DNA of 23,667 bases from the NCBI GenBank assembly GCA_918234285.1, contig CAKJXZ020000035.1, positions 1 through 23,667 of the forward strand, in the 5' to 3' direction. The position numbers and the translations under genes are program-made. Within the stretch, counting starts at the first letter, position 1. Each line of letters starts with the position of its first letter. The DNA is from Pseudomonadota bacterium. GTDB lineage: Bacteria; Pseudomonadota; Alphaproteobacteria; RF32; CAG-239. The notes under the pieces are model-generated. The model was not told the DNA's origin. It searched no databases and worked only from the letters and a program-made list of their open reading frames with translations. This document shows, piece by piece, positions 8 through 23,667 of the stretch.

Positions 8-1198
8 ATGGCAAAAGAAAAATTTGAGCGGACGAAACCGCACTGCAACATTGGAACGATTGGTCACGTAGACCACGGTAAGACCACTTTGACAGCCGCC
101 ATTACCAAAGTATTGGCAGAAGAAGGCGGCGCCAGCTTCACGGCTTATGATCAAATTGATAAGGCACCGGAAGAACGCGCTCGCGGTATTACCATTTCGA
201 CGGCACACGTTGAATATGAAACCAAGAATCGTCACTATGCACACGTAGACTGCCCGGGCCACGCCGACTATGTTAAAAACATGATTACCGGTGCTGCTCA
301 GATGGATGGTGCAATTTTGGTAGTAAGTGCAGCTGACGGTCCGATGCCGCAAACTCGTGAACACATTTTGCTTGCTCGCCAAGTAGGTGTTCCGGCGATT
401 GTTGTATACATGAACAAAGTAGACCAAGTAGATGATCCGGAATTGCTCGAATTGGTAGAAATGGAAATTCGTGATTTGCTCAGCTCTTATGGTTTCCCTG
501 GCGATGAGATTCCGATTGTTAAAGGTTCAGCCTTGGCAGTATTGGAAGACGGCGACAGAAAAATCGGCCACGATTCGATTGTTGAATTGATGGAAAAAGT
601 AGACTCTTACATTCCGGAACCGACACGTCCGTTGGATCAGCCGTTCTTGATGCCGATTGAAGACGTATTCTCGATTTCCGGTCGTGGTACGGTTGTAACC
701 GGCCGTGTTGAACGCGGTGTATTGCATGTAGGTGACGAAATCGAAATCGTTGGTATTCGTCCGACACAGAAGACGACTTGCACGGGTATTGAAATGTTCC
801 GCAAGTTGTTGGATGAAGGCGAAGCCGGCGATAACATCGGTGTATTGTTGCGTGGTACGAAGCGTGAAGAAGTTGAACGCGGTCAAGTATTGGCTGCCCC
901 GGGAACGATTACCCCGCACACCGACTTCACCAGCGAATGCTACATTTTGACGAAGGAAGAAGGCGGTCGTCATACTCCGTTCTTCTCTAACTATCGTCCG
1001 CAATTCTATTTCCGTACGACCGACGTAACCGGTACGATTCAGTTGCCGGAAGGTACGGAAATGGTTATGCCTGGTGATAACGTAACCATTACGGTACAAC
1101 TGTTGAACCCGATTGCGATGAGCGAAGGTTTGCGCTTTGCTATCCGCGAAGGTGGTAGAACTGTTGGCGCCGGCGTTGTTTCTAAAATTTTGAAATAA
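8..1198 (+). CDS. tuf: Elongation factor Tu
   Basis: 396 aa starting [12 protein letters not shown]; G1 [10 protein letters not shown]2 RGITI, G3 DCPGH, G4 NKVD; C-terminal [10 protein letters not shown]. Confidence 0.99.
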
Positions 1199-1310
1199 CG
1201 TCTAGCTAGTAACTACTTGAGGGGCTTCTCCTCGTGTACGTTTTGTGTACACGTCGTCGAAGTCCCTCTTCGTATTTACACGCTATCCGTTATTTCCGTA
1301 AGTGTTCTTT
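1192..1310. repeat. Palindromic repeat element, copy 1 (MITE/RPE-like), overlapping the tuf stop codon
   Basis: Nested pairings: GAAATAACG 1192-1200 with CGTTATTTC 1288-1296; GAGGGGCTTC 1219-1228 with GAAGTCCCTC 1259-1268 (one G-U); apical CGTGTAC 1233-1239 with GTACACG 1247-1253. Right end GTGTTCTTT 1302-1310. Same architecture as 23375-23499. Confidence 0.75.
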
Positions 1311-1488
1311 AAGTGAAGTCCCCCGCGTCAAGGGACTTTCTGCGTATTTAAACGTTAATCTCGATTTTTCTTGTTAGGGGAATATTTATCTCGTTCTCCG
1401 TTATTTCCGTAAGTGTTCTTTAAGTGAAGTACACCGCGAGAAAAAGCCTTTTTCTATAAGCCTCGTTCTGCGAGTTTTTTCTTGTCAG
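1286..1488 (+). repeat. Tandem with 111-bp period: perfect 34-nt direct repeat plus a second conserved TTTTTCTTGT(T/C)AG block
   Basis: TCCGTTATTTCCGTAAGTGTTCTTTAAGTGAAGT at 1286-1319 and 1397-1430. TTTTTCTTGTYAG ends at 1377 and 1488, the same 111-bp offset. A third TTTTTTCTTGTTA lies near 1513-1525. Confidence 0.85.
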
Positions 1489-1538
1489 TAGCGTGAATCA
1501 GCGGAAACATTATTTTTTCTTGTTATAGGCATAGAATG

Positions 1539-1560
1539 ACGGAAACTTTTTCCGTTTTTT
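1539..1560 (+). terminator. Possible intrinsic terminator for the tuf transcript
   Basis: ACGGAAA-ctt-TTTCCGT stem-loop followed by TTTTT; the stem is weak and AT-rich. Confidence 0.4.
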
Positions 1561-1621
1561 GCCGTTGAACGGGGTGGAAGCGCCGTTATACATACTTCTT
1601 AACCGCCCGACCAAAATTAAT

Positions 1622-6568: not shown

Positions 6569-8647
6569 ATGGAAGTGTTGCAGGATTTTCACTTTTTACG
6601 TCCGTTATGGCTGGTTGCGTTGTTTATTCCGCTGCTGTGGGGCTGGTTTATTTATCGTAACGAGCGCGTGCAATCATCGTGGGCTGACGTTTGCGACGAA
6701 CATTTGCTAAACTTTTTGTTGATTAAGGGCGATAATCATCAGCGGCGGCTTTCATATGTTTTGGCGGTGCTGTTCATGATCTTCTCTATTTTAGCCCTGG
6801 CCGGTCCGACTTGGGTTAAAAAGCCTAATCCGGCGCTGAGCGTGGATAATCCGGTGATGATTGTTCTTAGCTTATCTTCAAATATGGAAAAGACCGATGT
6901 GGCGCCGAATCGTTTGGTGCGGGCGCGCTATATCATCAAGGACTTTATACAAACCCTACGCTCGACCGAAATCGGGCTGGAAGTATACAGCGACGAGCCG
7001 TTTATGATTTCTCCGCTGACCGAAGATGCGGCACTGATTGACAATTTATTGCCGGTGATTGAGCGTAATATTATGCCGGCTGACGGCGATAGACTTGATC
7101 GGGCTATCGATATGGCAGTGGAGCGCATGCAGAGCATAGGGTATGCTTCCGGCAATATTATCGTGTTGGCGGCCGATGTCGGCGAGCGTTTTGAAGCGGC
7201 GTTGGAGAGTGCGGCCAAGGCATATCGCAACGGCTTTGATGTTAATGTAATCAAGGTCAGTACCGAGGAAAATGAAAAATTGCAAATGGTGTCACAAAAA
7301 GGTTATGGGGTTTATTTGAATTATAACCAGAGCTATGCGCCGCTGAGCCGAAAAATCAATGACTTATATGCCAAAAAACTTAATGAAAGCAAAAATATGC
7401 AATCAATTTGGTTGGATTTCGGATATTATCTGTTCTGGCTTCCGGCCTTTCTGTTGCTGTATTATTATCGACGCGGGGTGATTGCCGGATTGTTGCTGTG
7501 TTTGATTTGCTCCGAGGCATATGCCGGATGGTTTATCAACGATAACCAGGAAGCGATGCAATATTTCAAACGCAAGCAATATGATAAGGCGGCACAGATG
7601 TTTCAAAATGCACAATGGCGCGGAGCCGCGGCTTATAAAAACGGGGATTTTGAACAGGCATATCAGGAATTTTCCAAGGAAAATGATGTCGTTTCTCTGT
7701 ATAATCAGGGCAATGCATTGGCTAAGTCGGGAAAAATCGACGAGGCGATTGCCAAGTATGAAGAAGTGCTTAAGCAAAAGCCGGATTTTGAAGATGCAAA
7801 ATTTAATCTGGAATACTTGAAAAAACTCAATAAAAATCAGAATCAGAAGCAAAATCAAAAGCAGGATAATGAGCAGGATCAGCAAAAGCAACAAAAATCC
7901 GGCGGCGATGAGAAAGAAAAAAATAACCAGCAGCAAAATAATCAGCAGCAGGGAAATCAGGAGCAAGAGCAACAGCAAGAACAACAGAAACAGCAGCAAC
8001 AACAAGAGCAACAACAGCAAGAACAACAGCAAAAGCAACAGCAAGACGGCACGCAACAAGAACAACAACAAGAGCAGCAGCAACAAGAGCAGGATGGTTC
8101 TAAACAAGAACAACAAGAGCAACAGTCGCAGAATCAGGAACAACAGCAGCAAAACGATTCACAACAAGGCCAGCAACAGCAGGAGCAGAAACAATCACAA
8201 GGAGAATCCGAACAATCACCGGAGCAGGAGCAGAACGAAAATCAAAACGGAGATGAGCAACAATCTTCTGCGGAAAATCAAGACGGAGAAAATAAATCCG
8301 ATGCCGCCGAGTCCGCGGAAAATGATGCAGAGCAAAATCAGCAGCAGAGCTCTGCCGAAGATAAGCAGGATGACCGGCAAAAAGGCAATTCTCAAGCTGA
8401 ACCGGCAGATAACAATTCTGATGATAAGGAAGAAGAACAAGAAGTACAGGCCCAATCAGGTCAGCAGGATGAAAACGGTAAAGAAGCGGAGGAAGTGCAG
8501 ATGCAAAACGGCGATAAAGCTGCCGATAAGGAAAAAATGCGCGCCCGTATGCAGAAATTCCGCGATATTCCGGAAGACAAGGGCGGGTTGTTGCGCGCCC
8601 TAATCGCCAAAGAATATCGCAAAAACAGATATAAGGATGAATACTGA
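6569..8647 (+). CDS. VWA + TPR protein with Gln/Glu-rich low-complexity tail (BatB/BatC-like fusion)
   Basis: FHFLRPLWL, ALAGPTW, DVAPNRL, PLTED; TPR segment YNQGNALAKSGKIDEAIAKYEEVL...DAKFNL; Q-rich tract; conserved tail IPEDKGGLLR. Confidence 0.9.
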   Translation: MEVLQDFHFLRPLWLVALFIPLLWGWFIYRNERVQSSWADVCDEHLLNFLLIKGDNHQRRLSYVLAVLFMIFSILALAGPTWVKKPNPALSVDNPVMIVLSLSSNMEKTDVAPNRLVRARYIIKDFIQTLRSTEIGLEVYSDEPFMISPLTEDAALIDNLLPVIERNIMPADGDRLDRAIDMAVERMQSIGYASGNIIVLAADVGERFEAALESAAKAYRNGFDVNVIKVSTEENEKLQMVSQKGYGVYLNYNQSYAPLSRKINDLYAKKLNESKNMQSIWLDFGYYLFWLPAFLLLYYYRRGVIAGLLLCLICSEAYAGWFINDNQEAMQYFKRKQYDKAAQMFQNAQWRGAAAYKNGDFEQAYQEFSKENDVVSLYNQGNALAKSGKIDEAIAKYEEVLKQKPDFEDAKFNLEYLKKLNKNQNQKQNQKQDNEQDQQKQQKSGGDEKEKNNQQQNNQQQGNQEQEQQQEQQKQQQQQEQQQQEQQQKQQQDGTQQEQQQEQQQQEQDGSKQEQQEQQSQNQEQQQQNDSQQGQQQQEQKQSQGESEQSPEQEQNENQNGDEQQSSAENQDGENKSDAAESAENDAEQNQQQSSAEDKQDDRQKGNSQAEPADNNSDDKEEEQEVQAQSGQQDENGKEAEEVQMQNGDKAADKEKMRARMQKFRDIPEDKGGLLRALIAKEYRKNRYKDEY
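7837..8500 (+). repeat. Coding low-complexity CAG/CAA/GAA tract (poly-Gln/Glu)
   Basis: Encodes runs such as QEQEQQQEQQKQQQQQEQQQQEQQQKQQQDGTQQEQQQEQQQQEQDGSKQEQQEQQ using mixed CAA/CAG codons. Confidence 0.85.
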
Positions 8648-16463: not shown

Positions 16464-16949
16464 ATGAGAAAATTGTTGTTTTGGGGTGTTGCCGCCATTA
16501 TATTCGCGTTTGGGGCAGACCAGCTCAGTAAAAGCCTGTTGGCGGCCTATGTGGCGGACGGAGAAGCATTTTCGTTCGGCAGTTTTTTTAATTTGGTAAA
16601 AGTATGGAATACCGGCGTCAGTTTTTCGATGTTTAATAATCACGGTGATATCGGTAGAGTGCTGTTATCGGTGTTTTCTTTGGTTGTATGTGCGTTTTTG
16701 TTGCATTGGATGCTCAAAGAAAGCAACTGGCTGAAAGTGGTGGCGCTCGGGTTGGTTATCGGCGGGGCGCTCGGTAATGTTGTTGACCGTATTCGGTTTG
16801 GTGCGGTGCTTGATTTTTTGGATTTTCATATTGCCGAATATCACTGGCCGGCTTTCAATTTGGCCGATACGTTTATTTGTGTAGGCGCTTGTCTTTTGAT
16901 TTTATTGGAAATATTTAAAGTAAAAACAGAAAAAACGGAGGAAAAATGA
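16464..16949 (+). CDS. lspA: Lipoprotein signal peptidase (signal peptidase II)
   Basis: DQLSK, NTGVSFS, GGALGNVVDR, AVLDFL and WPAFNLAD (catalytic Asp pair). Confidence 0.97.
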   Translation: MRKLLFWGVAAIIFAFGADQLSKSLLAAYVADGEAFSFGSFFNLVKVWNTGVSFSMFNNHGDIGRVLLSVFSLVVCAFLLHWMLKESNWLKVVALGLVIGGALGNVVDRIRFGAVLDFLDFHIAEYHWPAFNLADTFICVGACLLILLEIFKVKTEKTEEK

Positions 16950-17170
16950 AGAAATTTTATGTGGTTATTGCCGTTGCCGCAATTTTGGCGACAAGTTCTT
17001 GCGGCTGGAGCAAGAAAAAACTCGGATTTACACAATCGGGACCGGATGAAACTCTGGTACAGACCAATGATCCGTTGATTTTGCCGCCGGAATTTAATGT
17101 TCGTCCGAAGAAAACGGCCGGAGCCGAAGATTTGGAAAACAGTGATATAAAAGAAGACGATAATGAATAA
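16946..17170 (+). CDS. Small lipoprotein, DUF3035-like
   Basis: Lipoprotein signal MKK-hydrophobic-TSSC and GPDE...PLILPPEFNVRP; ATGA overlap with lspA. Confidence 0.8.
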   Translation: MKKFYVVIAVAAILATSSCGWSKKKLGFTQSGPDETLVQTNDPLILPPEFNVRPKKTAGAEDLENSDIKEDDNE

Positions 17171-18497
17171 ATTTTTGTTTCTGCCGCTATTGTTTATGCT
17201 CGCAGGTACGGCCGATGCCGCAATGTTTAAGGCTGAGGAATTTACGCTTGATAACGGCCTGCGGGTAGTGGTGGCAGAAAATCATAAGGCGCCGCTGGTT
17301 AAACACATGATGTGGTATCAGGTAGGAGCGGTTGACGAGTTTCGCGGCCGCGGCGGCAGTGCGCATCTTTTGGAGCACCTGCTGTTCCGCGGTACTAAAA
17401 AAGTCAGTGGTGATGAGTTTAATCGGATTATGGAAAAAAACGGCGCCGAATCAAATGCTTTTACCAGTCATGATGTTACGGCTTATCATCAATTTGCCGA
17501 TGTGAGCCGTTTGGAAATTTTGATGGCGCTGGAAGCTGATCGTATGCAAAATCTCAACATCAGCGAGGAAGATTTTGAAGCCGAGCGCAAAATAGTGTTT
17601 CAGGAGCGTAAACAGGTGGTGGAGAATAATCCGGCATCGCCTTTCGGTGAAAGGGTGCGCCAGATGATGTGGGGAACGTCACCGTACGGGCAGCCGGTTA
17701 CCGGTCTGCCGGAGGAAATTATGGCCTTAAAATATGCCGATACGCTGGATTTTTATCATAAATACTACGCTCCGAACAATGCGATTTTGGTGATTTCCGG
17801 CGATGTTGATACAAAGACCTTACGTCCGCTCATCGAAAAATATTACGGCGGATTGGAGAAAAGACCGGTGGAACGCGAAGTTCCGGCACCGCAGAATGAA
17901 AAATTACACCAATCCCTGCAAATGAGTTTGCCGCATATCGCAACGCCGCGGATTGCCCGGGCGTTTATGTTGCCGCCGCGGGAGCAAATGCAGGATATGA
18001 TATATGCTTATGATATTTTGGCCGAGTTTTTGGGCGGGGGCGAAACCGCCGAGCTCTATCGCGATTTGGTGTTGAGAAAGCGTTTGGCAGTAGGAGTTTC
18101 CGCCGGTTATAACTATATGACGCGCAGCAACACGGTGTTCAGAGTTAGTATGGTGCCGGATACGGATAAAGGGTTCGCGCCGGAAGCGGCAGTGCAAACA
18201 TTGAATGCGGCTATGGAGCGTGCAAAGATGGCTTTAACGGCAGAAAGATTGGCGCAAATCAAACGCAAAATCTCGGCCAATTTGGTTTATCTCAAAGATA
18301 ATCCGCAAACGGCCGCCAACTGGATAGGCTATATGCTTTCAATGGGTTTTACTTTGGATGATGTGCAAAATTATGAAGATAAAATCAAGGCCGTTACCTT
18401 AGATGAGGTTAAACAGGCTTTTGCCGCACTTTCCGAGGCGGCGGATATAACGGCGGTTTTGTTGCCGCAACAGGATGACGGAGGCAAAAATGAGTAA
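17163..18497 (+). CDS. M16 family zinc metallopeptidase, catalytic subunit, exported
   Basis: Signal peptide, TLDNGL, inverted zinc motif HLLEH, NAFTS and YYAPNNA. Confidence 0.95.
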   Translation: MNKFLFLPLLFMLAGTADAAMFKAEEFTLDNGLRVVVAENHKAPLVKHMMWYQVGAVDEFRGRGGSAHLLEHLLFRGTKKVSGDEFNRIMEKNGAESNAFTSHDVTAYHQFADVSRLEILMALEADRMQNLNISEEDFEAERKIVFQERKQVVENNPASPFGERVRQMMWGTSPYGQPVTGLPEEIMALKYADTLDFYHKYYAPNNAILVISGDVDTKTLRPLIEKYYGGLEKRPVEREVPAPQNEKLHQSLQMSLPHIATPRIARAFMLPPREQMQDMIYAYDILAEFLGGGETAELYRDLVLRKRLAVGVSAGYNYMTRSNTVFRVSMVPDTDKGFAPEAAVQTLNAAMERAKMALTAERLAQIKRKISANLVYLKDNPQTAANWIGYMLSMGFTLDDVQNYEDKIKAVTLDEVKQAFAALSEAADITAVLLPQQDDGGKNE

Positions 18498-19884
18498 GTG
18501 TCGTCGTTGGTGGGTCTTGGGGGCAGCGGTTGTTGTCGCGGCGGTTGTCGGCATGAGTTTTTGGCGCGGCAGTCGTATCGATACTGATTCCATTTTGGCA
18601 CATTCGGTTTTGAAAGATAAAACTTTCGGGGTTAAAGTACAACAAATCGAAGCGGACGGCATGAAGGCTTATTTGCTGGAAGAACATTCCAATCCGATTG
18701 TAGCCGTCAGTTTTATGTTTGATAATGCCGGTTCGGCATACGAGCCGAAAAATAAGCAGGGTTTAACCGCATTACTTTCCGAGATGTTGCTGAACGGCGC
18801 CGGAGAATATGAGGCTTTGCAGTTCAAAGATGTCGGAGAAGAATATGGAATAAGGTTGGGATTTGATGCCTCCGATGATGTTTTTGAAGGCTATTTACAA
18901 ATGCCTAAAGATAATCTGAATGTGGGGGTAAAGTTGTTTACTGCTGCCCTGTATAAACCGCATTTTACGCTTGATTACATCGCTATTGTTAAAAAGCAGT
19001 TACAAACAGCTATTCGCAATCATCAGGAGCGGCCGGAAGGTGTTTTGGGCGATAAATTCTCCGAGCTGATTTTTGCCGGGCATCCGTATGCTCGCCCGGC
19101 TATCGGTAAGCCGGAAACGGTGGCCGGTTTGAATCGTGGCGATTTGTTGAATTTTATGCGGACTCATTTTACTCAAGGCAATTTGATAATCGGAATTGCC
19201 GGTGATATTAATGCCGCTGAGGCCGAGCGCCTCATACACGATTTATTCGGCCGGTTGCCGCGACAGTTTGCCGAGAATACTTTGGCAGAATACAAAATCA
19301 ACAGTTCCGGCGCCACGCATAATGTAGAACGAGCAGCGCCGCAGGCAATCGCCGCTTTTGTGACGCAAGGGACACACCGCAACAGCGCGGATTTTTATCC
19401 GCTGTATGTGGCTAATTATATTTTCGGCGGGTCCGGGTTGAGTTCGCGTATATCTAAAGTTATACGTGAAGAAAATGGACTAACTTATGGAATTTACACA
19501 TATTTATCAAATAAAAAATCTGCAGTGATGTTGGCTGGCGGTTATGCTTCAACTCCGGAAAATTTTGCCAAGGCAAAAGATTTGTTGTTGGAACAATGGC
19601 GGCAGATGGCACAAAAAGGTGTCAGTAAAGAAGAGCTGCAACAGGCTAAAGATGCGTTGATTGCGGCGCATAATCTGCGTTTTGCCTCAACCGGCGGAAT
19701 TGCCGATATGTTGATGTCAATGCAGAAATATAACTTAGGTGCGGATTTTTTGGAAAAACGTAACGATTATATTCGGAATCTGACCTTGGACGAGGTTAAT
19801 GCCGCGGCAGCAAAATATTATGCCGCAATACCGGATTTTGTGATTATCGGTGCGCCGACAGTAACGGAAAAAGGAGAAAAGTAA
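18490..19884 (+). CDS. M16 family peptidase, non-catalytic partner subunit
   Basis: No HxxEH (LLSEML at the equivalent site); carries the R/Y pair (SSRI...IREENGLTYG); N-terminal membrane anchor. ATG 18490 after GGAGG is preferred over 18475. Confidence 0.92.
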   Translation: MSKCRRWWVLGAAVVVAAVVGMSFWRGSRIDTDSILAHSVLKDKTFGVKVQQIEADGMKAYLLEEHSNPIVAVSFMFDNAGSAYEPKNKQGLTALLSEMLLNGAGEYEALQFKDVGEEYGIRLGFDASDDVFEGYLQMPKDNLNVGVKLFTAALYKPHFTLDYIAIVKKQLQTAIRNHQERPEGVLGDKFSELIFAGHPYARPAIGKPETVAGLNRGDLLNFMRTHFTQGNLIIGIAGDINAAEAERLIHDLFGRLPRQFAENTLAEYKINSSGATHNVERAAPQAIAAFVTQGTHRNSADFYPLYVANYIFGGSGLSSRISKVIREENGLTYGIYTYLSNKKSAVMLAGGYASTPENFAKAKDLLLEQWRQMAQKGVSKEELQQAKDALIAAHNLRFASTGGIADMLMSMQKYNLGADFLEKRNDYIRNLTLDEVNAAAAKYYAAIPDFVIIGAPTVTEKGEK

Positions 19885-21536: not shown

Positions 21537-23375
21537 ATGAATATTCGTGTTTTACCTTCAAATCTTATCAACCAAATTGCGGCCGGAGAAGTTATCGAGC
21601 GACCGGCGTCGGTGTTGAAAGAATTGGTGGAAAACGCGATTGATGCCGAAGCGCGCAAAATCGAGGTTACTCTGACCGGTGGCGGCAAAAATATTTTAAC
21701 CGTGGCGGATGACGGTGTGGGAATGTCACCGGAAGAACTGAATTTGGCGGTGGAGCGGCATGCTACTTCAAAACTTCCCGACGACGATCTGTTTCAAATT
21801 AATTTTTTGGGCTTTCGCGGTGAGGCTTTGCCTTCAATCGGCTCGGTAGCGCGTCTGACGATTGTGTCGCGCAAAAAAGGAGCGGCGGAAGGGGCTAAAA
21901 TCAGCGTTGAGGGCGGCATAAAAAGTACGGTGGAGCCGGCGGCCATCGGCGGCGGTACCCGGATTGAGGTGCGGGATTTGTTTTATACCACTCCGGCACG
22001 TCTGAAGTTTTTGAAAGCGGACAGCGCCGAAGCGGCACAGTGTGTCGATATGTTGCAGCGAATAGCATTGGCTAATCCGAATGTGGCGTTTTATCTTTAC
22101 AGCGATGGCAAGAAAAAGTTGGCGCTGAACGTATGTACGGGCGAATTGCCGGAAGCGCGGCGCAAGCGGATTGCCGATGTTTGGGGTACGGAGTTTAAGG
22201 AAAATTCGGTACCGATTACGGCGCAGAACGAATTTTGCGACATCAGCGGCTTTGTCAGCGTTCCGACCTATAACAAAGCCAATTCGCTGGCGGAGTTTTT
22301 GTTTGTAAACAACCGTCCGGTGCGCGATAAGCTGATTTTGGGCGCGATTAAAGGCGCTTATCAGGATATGATGATGTCCGGCCGCTATCCGGTTTGCGCG
22401 ATTTTTATCAGGGTTAATCCGCGCTATGTCGATGTTAACGTGCATCCGACCAAAGCGGAAGTGCGATTTTATGACAACGGTGCGGTGCGCGGGCTGTTGG
22501 TCGGTGCAATCCGCAATGCTTTGAGTGCCGGAGCGCAGCACAGCGCCGACACCGGCGGTTTTGAAAATCTGTTGTTGCGGCAAATGACGGAACAAACCGC
22601 ACGTTTGCGTAATTTGCATCAACAGACGACGGATTTTTCGGTGCATGATACCGAGCCGGAGTTTGCCCGGCATAATCCTCTCGGTGCCGCCAAAAGTTCG
22701 CGCGGTGCGGCATTACCGGAGTTTTCCGAATGGCAGAACCGCTATTCGGTGCGGGTGGCCGATGAGCCGACGGCGGAAACGTTGGCCAATGTCGGCGAAC
22801 TCGGGCTGGCTAAGGCGCAATTTCATAACACTTACATCATTGCGCAAACCGAAGACAGTATCGTGATTGTCGACCAACACGCGGCGCATGAGCGGATTAC
22901 CATGGAGCGCATGAAACAGAGTATGGCCAAACACGAGCGCTTGCCGTCGCAATTGTTGCTTATTCCGGAAGTGGTTGAACTGGCCTTAGCCGAGCGCGAA
23001 AATCTGTTGGAATATGCCGATACGTTTGCCTCACTGGGTTTGAGCATTGAGGCTTTCGGCACCACGGCCGTTTTGGTGCGGGAAACTCCGGCACTTTTGG
23101 GCGATACCGATGTGCAAAATTTAATCAAAGACTTAGCAGAGCAAATCTCGGAATGGGGTAGTGCCTATGCCTTAACCGATAAAATTCATCACATTTGCGC
23201 TACCATCGCCTGTCACGGTTCGATACGAGCGGGCAGAGCGCTCAACACCGAAGAAATGAACCGTCTGCTTCGTGATATGGAGCAGACCGAGCACTCCGGC
23301 CAATGTAATCACGGTCGTCCGACGTATGTGAAGATTAGGGTGGCGGATATCGAGAAACTCTTCGAAAGAAAGTAG
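21537..23375 (+). CDS. mutL: DNA mismatch repair endonuclease MutL
   Basis: NQIAAGEVIERP, HATSK, GFRGEAL, DVNVHPTK; endonuclease motifs DQHAAHERITME, ACH and CNHGRP. Confidence 0.99.
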   Translation: MNIRVLPSNLINQIAAGEVIERPASVLKELVENAIDAEARKIEVTLTGGGKNILTVADDGVGMSPEELNLAVERHATSKLPDDDLFQINFLGFRGEALPSIGSVARLTIVSRKKGAAEGAKISVEGGIKSTVEPAAIGGGTRIEVRDLFYTTPARLKFLKADSAEAAQCVDMLQRIALANPNVAFYLYSDGKKKLALNVCTGELPEARRKRIADVWGTEFKENSVPITAQNEFCDISGFVSVPTYNKANSLAEFLFVNNRPVRDKLILGAIKGAYQDMMMSGRYPVCAIFIRVNPRYVDVNVHPTKAEVRFYDNGAVRGLLVGAIRNALSAGAQHSADTGGFENLLLRQMTEQTARLRNLHQQTTDFSVHDTEPEFARHNPLGAAKSSRGAALPEFSEWQNRYSVRVADEPTAETLANVGELGLAKAQFHNTYIIAQTEDSIVIVDQHAAHERITMERMKQSMAKHERLPSQLLLIPEVVELALAERENLLEYADTFASLGLSIEAFGTTAVLVRETPALLGDTDVQNLIKDLAEQISEWGSAYALTDKIHHICATIACHGSIRAGRALNTEEMNRLLRDMEQTEHSGQCNHGRPTYVKIRVADIEKLFERK

Positions 23376-23499
23376 AAAAATCCGTATAATGGTCTGCTAA
23401 TCAAAGGGTTTCTCGCTTATGTACCTTTTGTTGTACACCGCGCGAGAAACCCTTTTTCTATCAGACTCATTCTCCGGATTTTTCGGGCGTGTGTTCTTT
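23375..23499. repeat. Palindromic repeat element, copy 2 (MITE/RPE-like), starting in the mutL stop codon
   Basis: GAAAAATCCG 23375-23384 pairs with CGGATTTTTC 23475-23484. Perfect 14-bp stem AAAGGGTTTCTCGC 23403-23416 with GCGAGAAACCCTTT 23442-23455. Apical TGTAC 23420-23424 with GTACA 23433-23437. Right end GTGTTCTTT 23491-23499. Confidence 0.8.
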
Positions 23500-23584
23500 G
23501 AAGGGGATTCCTCCTTGTAATGACCTGTCTTTTTCGGCGGTTCCACTATGTTGTACAAAAAACGACTTTTTCCGCAAAAAACGC

Positions 23585-23616
23585 TTGCTTTTTGTGCTTT
23601 ACCATGTTATGGTAAA
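23585..23616 (+). promoter_or_regulatory. Putative promoter with an overlapping palindromic operator for the next gene
   Basis: TTGCTT (23585-23590), 17 bp, TATGGT (23608-23613); inverted repeat TTTACCAT-gtt-ATGGTAAA at 23598-23616. Confidence 0.45.
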
Positions 23617-23642
23617 ACATGTAAACTTGGGAGTAAAAATCA

Positions 23643-23667
23643 ATGGTCGGTAAATTGTGGCAAAAGC
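23643..23667 (+). CDS. Probable 5' end of a CDS truncated by the window edge (MVGKLWQK...)
   Basis: ATG 23643 is preceded by SD-like GGGAG 23629-23633; only 8 codons are visible. Confidence 0.4.

Follow-up and report, generated by a model that had tools for sequence, protein, structure and literature searches.

The window analysed here, a complete 23,667-nucleotide contig (CAKJXZ020000035.1, our C35) of the 2.0-Mb, 71-contig draft genome GCA_918234285.1 (Alphaproteobacteria; RF32; CAG-239), carries a short array of repeated sequences directly behind tuf, the gene for EF-Tu. We find that this array is probably the tail of a compound repeat, in which terminator-forming repeats are reshuffled by recombination and the array arises as a by-product. 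A full-length "head" element of ~110 nt (1190–1298) at the tuf stop codon would be followed by two 5′-truncated right-half copies, each equipped with a tail typical of the family. The family itself appears to consist of palindromic DNA repeats, spread order-wide among uncultured gut and rumen Alphaproteobacteria, whose copies may swap between loci and rearrange by recombination.

A motif scan and a profile search of the genome reveal a family element of ~110 nt with five parts. A left outer arm with the consensus TAAAAATCCGTATAATGG..CTAC is followed by a variable stem of 14–16 nt and a conserved apical hairpin that takes the form TTATGTAC-loop-GTACACCGCG or CTCGTGTAC..GTACACGTCG. A sequence exactly complementary to the variable stem comes next, and a right outer arm (..CATTCTCCGGATTTTT) completes the element. 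When 20 full copies are aligned (alignment A2), they conform to one hairpin of 36 pairs in which 94.6% of cells are paired, whereas slid controls pair at only 35–53%. Both sides have changed at 25 of the 36 pairs, and the observed covariation score is reached by none of 500 shuffles. The outer helix, with nine pairs of which five covary, is 96.7% paired and constitutes terminal inverted repeats like those of MITEs (transposable elements of miniature size with inverted repeats). The element ends are TAAAAATCCG and CGGATTTTTA, and the three residues that follow the outer helix, T107–T109, are invariant in the 20 copies.

Variability in the variable stem is roughly double that of the remaining element (column entropies of 1.1–1.28 versus 0.43–0.81 bits), such that 54 distinct left-stem strings occur among 66 distinct copies from other genomes. 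Despite this variation, those 66 copies contain 2179 Watson-Crick cells, with 24 G.T pairs and 125 other mismatches. Because G.T pairs are not favored over other mismatches, and because both strands of the elements fold equally well, the data point to complementarity that is maintained at the DNA level and not by selection on RNA alone.

Searches with nhmmer yield 50 matches in this genome. A covariance model (R1) recovers 21 full copies on the forward strand with scores of 84–117 bits, while the reverse strand reaches merely 32–50 bits, and a further 34 right halves follow heads as members of arrays. Model matches are present in all 24 other genomes of the genus that were sampled and in 105 of 121 genomes of the order, representing all 19 genera sampled, but in none of 15 other families of the class. 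When one genome for each species was scanned with a pattern, 72 loci emerged; the model upheld ~60 of these, its forward matches numbering 72 across the full set of 91 sources searched. The confirmed loci all come from metagenome-assembled genomes that bear the label Alphaproteobacteria or a similar one, the majority of them rumen-derived; the unconfirmed loci include every record labelled non-Proteobacteria as well as four labelled Rickettsiales or Alphaproteobacteria. The papers searched contain no description of the family and neither its 12-nt nor its 16-nt arm motif.

The window carries two full-length copies, one behind tuf and one behind mutL, and the array extends from the first of these. 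The relevant features are as follows.

Positions 8–1198, plus strand: tuf (EF-Tu) coding sequence, from the list of open reading frames (ORFs); its TAA stop codon (1196–1198) lies within the left outer arm of the hairpin element.
Positions 1190–1298, plus strand: full-length head element, matched by covariance model R1 at 89.6 bits over model positions 1–111.
Positions 1299–1319, plus strand: first copy of the conserved tail, TAAGTGTTCTTTAAGTGAAGT, an exact repeat that forms the second portion of a 34-mer.
Positions 1316–1377, plus strand: unit 1, an internally deleted copy; an intact hairpin stands at the paralogous place on contig C17.
Positions 1381–1408, plus strand: third right-outer-arm fragment, AATATTTATCTCGTTCTCCGTTATTTCCG, identified from direct repeats D1 and D5 and from alignment with the relative G001.
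Positions 1409–1430, plus strand: second copy of the conserved tail, which repeats 1298–1319 exactly.
Positions 1429–1488, plus strand: unit 2, the right half of another subfamily (nhmmer profile positions 63–117, E 8.5e-9).
Positions 1488–1526, plus strand: distal flank GCGTGAATCAGCGGAAACATTATTTTTTCTTGTTAT, including a third TTTTTCTTGTT motif (96.7% over 30 nt to C17 by BLAST; also aligned in G001).
Positions 1538–1562, plus strand: small, ordinary terminator-like hairpin, ACGGAAAC/UUCCGU followed by six T residues (−10.9 kcal/mol, z only −1.3), which is kept in G001.
Positions 21537–23375, plus strand: mutL coding sequence, from the ORF list, with a TAG stop codon at 23373–23375.
Positions 23374–23485, plus strand: full-length element directly after the mutL stop, the top-scoring copy of the genome (model R1, 117.5 bits).

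The head behind tuf proceeds from left outer arm through variable stem, conserved apical hairpin (GTGTAC..GTACAC) and stem complement to a right outer arm that terminates in CCGTTATTTCCG, with the tuf stop at an offset of +6 relative to model position 1. It is predicted to form a single long hairpin (−47.5 kcal/mol, z −8.9). A whole-genome BLAST of the spacer between tuf and the glycosyltransferase gene finds it again, at 99% identity, next to a second copy of tuf on contig C17. The mutL element folds similarly (−49.9 kcal/mol, z −10.5), and the same element is found in G001, the closest relative. In contrast to these full elements, the units of the array fold no better than shuffles (z of −1.2, −2.0 and +0.07).

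Unit 1 retains a left-arm stub, AAGTCCC (7 nt, 1316–1322), that is joined directly to CCGCG, TCAAGGGACTT, the right outer arm and TTTTTCTTGTTAG. The paralogous place on C17 instead holds one complete hairpin, AAAGTCCCTTGAC-TTATGTAC..GTACACCGCG-TCAAGGGACTTT, where the window has AAGTCCC fused to CCGCGTCAAGGGACTT. This complete counterpart shows unit 1 to be an internally deleted copy. Its variable arm recurs elsewhere in the genome at C59:10314 and C3:88421. The fragment at 1381–1408 resembles the right arm of the head in G001. Unit 2 is composed of GTACACCGCG, AGAAAAAGCC, TTTTTCTATAAGCCTCGTTCTGCGAGTTTTTT and CTTGTCAG, and its nearest relative in the genome is the head at C3:119774, behind rpsD (91% over 35 nt). 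The tail core, GTTCTTTAA, is found after the mutL element as well (23486–23510) and behind family members of other species. The small hairpin at 1538–1562 is possibly the native tuf terminator, which the array would have pushed downstream.

The repeats of this region had been described in a first-pass annotation of the window as a mini-array with a 111-bp period, in which constant blocks alternate with variable segments, and its measurements are borne out. The 34-nt blocks at 1286–1319 and 1397–1430 are identical and belong to a longer repeat of 47 nt (1281–1327 and 1392–1438, 91%) with a spacing of 111. The motif TTTTTCTTGTYAG is present at 1365 and again at 1476, and position 1514 holds another copy, the third, in the form TTTTTCTTGTTAT. 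The reported likeness of unit 1 to the right arm of the tuf element amounts to 84% between TCTTCGTATTTACACGCTA (1267–1285) and TCTGCGTATTTAAACGTTA (1339–1357), and the match of 1429–1479 to the mutL element (23433–23483) covers 42 of 51 ungapped positions, with the next-best 51-mers of the window reaching only 26–27 of 51 on either strand. The mutL element is nevertheless not the closest relative of unit 2, given the nearer copy at C3:119774. Similarly, the 34-mer is an exact repeat but not an independent block, as its first 13 nt are the end of the head's right outer arm and the remainder is the 21-nt tail. The statement that only right arms are present is nearly correct, save for the 7-nt stub of unit 1.

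Two readings had been offered for this layout. The first, debris from a single repeat family, is essentially right: the segments are 5′-truncated right halves of the family described above, and the number of units does differ between relatives, with one in G001 and two in the window. The second, a constant-variable-constant cassette array producing antisense RNAs, is unsupported, as the constant block belongs to the repeat, no promoter-like site was found in 1100–1800, and the units are unstructured. What had appeared to be the best candidate for an undescribed system in the window resolves to relic half-copies of a palindromic repeat. An array of the repeat-spacer or cassette type was also rejected, in that the constant block occurs in only two copies and the "variable" segments are right halves of the family and not unrelated unique sequences. 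Tandem Repeats Finder does not call the region of the tuf array. Rfam searches give no match for 1100–1800 at E values up to 10, and only chance-level matches (E above 1) for 23300–23667. Small ORFs within the element display no consistent frame by eye.

The positions of full copies relative to genes are strongly constrained. In this genome, each of 20 heads lies downstream of a co-oriented ORF of at least 180 aa, and the stop codon falls at −5 to +2 of model position 1 for 17 of them. Copies from other genomes behave alike, with a co-oriented upstream ORF in 63 of 66 cases, a stop codon at −7 to +3 in 53 of 66, and a converging ORF in 8 of 66. For comparison, uniform placement of a 110-nt element in intergenic gaps would result in 45% co-orientation and only 3.0% of copies at −7 to +3. 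The linked stop codons comprise 49 TAA, 13 TAG and 1 TGA (n = 63), counts that are not independent because many of the loci are orthologues, whereas the long ORFs of the genome terminate in 986 TAA, 322 TGA and 212 TAG codons (TGA being 21% of 1520). In the TAG cases the element comes after the entire stop codon.

The upstream genes encode EF-Tu (twice), S1, S4, L1, RpoA, NusG, DnaK, IleRS, RecR, MutL, PFOR, pyruvate phosphate dikinase, thymidylate synthase and cyclophilin, along with a FabG-like reductase, OmpA-, FadL- and TolC-like proteins, a DUF748 protein and a histidine kinase. We take this set to be rich in highly expressed genes.

Intrinsic terminators are stable hairpins that lead straight into a T-run on the transcribed strand and lie where a co-oriented gene or operon ends. 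The full elements have this anatomy, and comparisons among relatives are consistent with this role. Among 17 tuf flanks, the element stands directly after the stop in 11, while the other six carry a plain A-tract/stem/T-tract hairpin located 15–25 nt after the stop. The element is present 0–9 nt after the mutL stop in 10 of 30 genomes without alteration of the protein C-terminus (EKLFER[RK]), which is conserved in all 30. Behind rpoA of G001 (L218:2606–2680), the element has shrunk to the left arm, a short hairpin derived from the variable stem and six T residues (z −6.1), and thus is a repeat reduced to a terminator of ordinary size. Because the T-run is invariant, because plain terminators occupy the same place in relatives and because the rpoA copy has shrunk in this manner, the full elements are most likely intrinsic terminators and 3′ protective hairpins of their genes, as judged from anatomy and position. 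They share with intrinsic terminators the hairpin and T-run that end a transcription unit, the 5′ A-tract, and evidently the capacity to shrink to one. Unlike typical examples, they have ~36 predicted pairs over ~100 nt rather than 5–14 pairs, belong to a repeated family of homologous copies instead of having evolved locally, and begin at the stop codon rather than 15–25 nt beyond it.

Trains of right halves behind a single head are a general property of the family. From this genome and from loci of relatives we obtained 231 distinct profile hits, comprising 101 full copies, 115 right-only copies, 1 left-only copy and 14 others that are partial, mostly because they are cut by locus ends or internally deleted. 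The loci of relatives were chosen around full copies, whereas this genome provides an unbiased sample, and no left-only copy was found in it. The hits form 105 arrays, of which 67 have at least two units and 38 have no follower; the first unit is a full copy in 95, and only a single array has a full copy further along. Right-only units begin most often at profile positions 30–49, late in the left variable stem (80 units), or at positions 55–64, on the right side of the apex (21 units). The 34 followers of this genome are closest to their own head in 8 cases and to a head at another locus in 4, with the remainder being more diverged.

Comparisons with close relatives reveal that these trains vary. 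G001 is collinear with the window from the array to mutL, and its synteny with this genome ends precisely where the mutL element does on its 3′ side; its lone follower behind tuf is of the unit-1 type, and it has no right half of the unit-2 type. The head subtype differs among close species at the same gene end, and at two other gene ends a subtype found as the head in one species turns up in another as the second, truncated unit. Behind rpsA, this genome has a head of subtype A1 and then a half of subtype M, and G001 has an M head, two M halves and then an A1 half. Because unit number, unit type and synteny change between close relatives, the comparison shows frequent recombination among family members. 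Within sequencing runs, which were examined as Logan contigs, short contigs of runs X3 and X4 skip 1376–1492, although the joint (1375→1493) rests on sides of 22–23 letters and is weak.

The two tuf copies of this genome provide a related observation. The copy at C17:65000–65374 is 99% identical to window positions 1064–1308 over the end of the gene and the 110 nt directly behind it and then differs, such that homogenisation of the two copies seems to extend through the head element. Elsewhere, the same 63-nt right-half unit occurs at least three times at the start of one contig (C51:1–200) and the end of another (C7:38000–38216), an array that probably broke the assembly. A different repeat of ~150 nt, starting GGAGGAA.AAAAACAACCTCAAAATGTTGTTTTT, is found at C36:22075–22230 and as two tandem copies behind rpsA in G007 (contig C61). 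Each time it is inserted directly after GTACACGTCGCC in a right half of the hairpin family, as if targeting that position.

The compound-repeat reading might unite these data as follows. Right halves could be generated by tandem duplication of the right half of a head, by ectopic exchange with other members of the family, or possibly by break repair at the hairpin apex, and the 111-bp period would reflect one such duplication step. Selection would keep the head intact, whereas left arms located downstream may be lost, since adjacent right arms would offer them a pairing partner. The outcome would be a changing train of partnerless right halves behind one intact head, probably functionless in themselves.

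Several observations weigh against this interpretation. The right halves of followers are undecayed, with median scores of 39, 35, 40, 41 and 42 bits for ranks 0 through 4. This is unexpected for old neutral debris, and therefore fast turnover, conversion or selection is needed to explain it. The tails after the right arm are conserved across species, and a pure by-product view leaves this conservation unexplained. The reversed subtype order at rpsA between this genome and G001 fits no simple model, and no mobilising enzyme has been identified. Termination itself is deduced indirectly, since the sole RNA run (X15) covers only 900–1189 of the window with 17 differences, which is a relative's tuf, contains nothing past the stop and is uninformative regarding expression. 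Moreover, a terminator role alone explains neither the sharp anchoring at stop codons, given that ordinary terminators of relatives lie 15–25 nt further on, nor the near-absence of TGA (1 of 63 linked stops versus 21% of 1520 long ORFs, with many loci being orthologues). For E. coli, PMC12306157, citing an earlier study, reports that hairpins of repetitive extragenic palindromic (REP) sequences less than 16 nt from a stop codon stall ribosomes and lower translation.

A first alternative holds that the repeats are a miniature transposon still active, whose target is the TA in TAA or TAG stops or the left end of its own kind. The trains would then be scars of repeated insertion, in which each newcomer displaces and truncates the resident. 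This model is unlikely, although it accommodates several findings. The ends can be written as TA-AAAAATCCG...CGGATTTTT-A with the outer stem acting as terminal inverted repeats, and the stop codons to which elements are linked are biased in the predicted direction. A given gene end may carry an element in some species and lack it in others (for tuf, 11 carry one and 6 do not; 10/30 carry one for mutL), two loci exhibit the exchange between head and truncated second unit that head insertion predicts, and the genome harbors other repeats with a clear 8-bp target duplication.

However, no filled and empty pair with both flanks conserved was found at tuf, at mutL or at loci of this genome compared with five relatives, so that a target duplication could not be shown there. 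When a stretch of 20 kb and another two loci were set against the five relatives, elements reside at the same gene ends wherever these could be matched, and no empty site was seen. Most copies are therefore old, because the same gene ends are occupied in five species, which counts against ongoing transposition. In addition, the A that follows the T-run is part of the conserved tails, the left-only copies that might mark a longer autonomous element are practically missing (1 of 231), and in TAG cases the element follows a complete stop codon. A simple head-insertion model was rejected, as it fits the two loci but fails at rpsA, where the subtype order contradicts it.

Candidate mobilisers fared no better. 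This 71-contig draft contains neither Y1_Tnp nor DDE_3 domains, other transposase families not having been searched. A Y1 transposase was rejected because it is absent here and present in only 9–10 of 31 genomes of the genus, with no family element at the three loci checked, and an IS630-type DDE_3 enzyme was rejected because this genome has none. For the IS91-type Y2_Tnp there was no match, but control genomes were silent too, making the search uninformative; the GTTC and CTTG in the tails bear no more than a resemblance to IS91 targets. A reverse transcriptase was likewise discarded, since RVT_1 occurs in 6 of 31 genomes of the genus and is absent from the element-rich genomes G001, G007, G009, G003 and G016. 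Separately, C27:9493–10524 (L092:1261–2292, minus strand) encodes a 343-aa ORF with RVT_1 as its only domain and no family element nearby. The ORFs next to it match nothing in Pfam, and the contig also holds an integrase-family match; the protein is possibly a retron or other defence-type reverse transcriptase.

Known repeat classes resemble the family in part. ERIC/IRU, Correia and RUP elements are MITE-like, long imperfect-palindrome intergenic repeats that can act as terminators or RNA-stability elements. Like these, the present family consists of single imperfect hairpins of ~100–130 nt in tens of copies per genome, within transcribed intergenic DNA and with outer arms that serve as terminal inverted repeats. 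Unlike them, its full copies start at a stop codon in 80–85% of cases and all face the same direction relative to the upstream gene, it piles up right halves only (115 to 1), its mid-stem is about twice as variable yet complementary, and no target duplication or partner transposase was found.

REP elements are described in PMC3733652 as 20–40 bp in length with stems of 5–13 bp and a conserved unpaired GTAG or CGTC tag, and CGTC-tagged REPs are common in Alphaproteobacteria without a dedicated transposase (PMC3733652, PMC2817692). The family shares with REP, BIME and REPIN sequences an extragenic palindromic character, a location just 3′ of genes, a presumed terminating or mRNA-stabilising function, long-lived vertical inheritance and clustering in mosaics. 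It differs from REPs in being a single 110-nt hairpin of 36 predicted pairs, with CGTC occurring only near the apex of one subfamily and no terminal tag. Its trains are all direct and one-sided, whereas REP clusters alternate in orientation or form head-to-head dimers, and a REPIN-RAYT relationship is opposed by the distribution of Y1 genes noted above.

A more speculative variant, which we consider quite unlikely, would treat the trains as the record of a directional exchange process at gene ends, in which the invariant apical mini-palindrome TGTAC-loop-GTACA serves as a break or fold-back point. The head would be rebuilt or replaced repeatedly from other members or from its own right halves, with each event leaving a right half behind, and the whole would constitute a self-renewing "terminator cassette" system bound to stop codons of highly expressed genes. 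The near-absence of TGA and the location of the left arm beneath the terminating ribosome could reflect a link to translation termination that makes transcription termination translation-dependent.

It is very unlikely that the right-half units are functional in their own right, either as tandem protein-binding sites or as RNA complementary to left arms on other transcripts. The equal conservation of right halves in followers and heads without decay by rank, the cross-species conservation of tail motifs, the presence of trains at 67 of 105 arrays and the matches between variable arms of followers and heads at other loci are what such a function might produce. Nonetheless, unit number and type differ even between closest relatives, 38 of 105 heads have no follower at all, and the tuf array carries neither a promoter-like site nor structure above that of shuffles. 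The intramolecular 36-pair hairpin of a head should also outcompete pairing in trans, and followers sit behind a probable terminator.

We give very little credence to the possibility that the elements are attC-like recombination sites, at which a tyrosine recombinase acting on a folded strand would insert units at gene ends. Integron attC sites are imperfect palindromes located directly after an ORF; their ends are conserved, their centre varies yet remains self-complementary, and conserved unpaired bases define the strand. The family is similar in length, in its gene-end position, in its conserved ends and variable self-complementary middle, and in conserved unpaired positions that give it direction. 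Furthermore, the single intact copy is always gene-proximal, the break in this genome's synteny with G001 falls precisely on an element's 3′ end, and the genome has 12 Phage_integrase-family matches. The family's ends, though, lack attC core sites, the elements follow dispersed housekeeping genes and not cassettes, the units contain no ORF, and no element-linked recombinase gene was found, the 12 integrase loci not having been examined for linkage.

Finally, an assembly artefact in which collapsed or chained repeats at a contig start within duplicated tuf create the two-unit layout is extremely improbable: although the contig starts in tuf, the second tuf copy ends contig C17, several family arrays lie at contig ends, and none of the contigs listed for the best-holding run bridges both 34-mers (nor does any listed DNA contig cover the whole array), overlapping short contigs of that run tile 900–2000 with depth in all 30 bins, the two 34-mers have different flanks on either side, comparable trains are assembled within long contigs in many genomes, and G001 has the same layout with one unit fewer.

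Other repeats were encountered during this work. Within the window, a segment at 7961–8091, inside the ORF at 6569–8647, contains CAG/CAA-rich tandem repeats with periods of 12–42 that encode a Gln/Glu-rich low-complexity stretch. An insertion of ~200 bp relative to G001 at L171:4960–5155 (C3 ~105359–105554) is flanked by the direct repeat TTTCAGAA, and G007 and G009 contain similar copies. This MITE-like element is of a conventional type, its empty site is clear, and it has no relation to the hairpin family. Three more short repeat families (L171:286–504, 16817–17118 and 18429–18556) have many copies with 75–94% identity on different contigs of G001, G007 and G009, so small repeats abound in this genus.

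The hairpin family is unusual among bacterial repeats in that about four-fifths of its copies start on stop codons, in its concentration behind highly expressed housekeeping genes, and in its accumulation of right halves alone that do not decay with rank. If the hairpins are indeed the working terminators of genes such as tuf, rpsA, rpoA and dnaK across the order, they would disrupt assemblies and synteny at gene ends, could help as markers to type strains of these uncultured lineages, and would show a repeat family taking over a core regulatory role.

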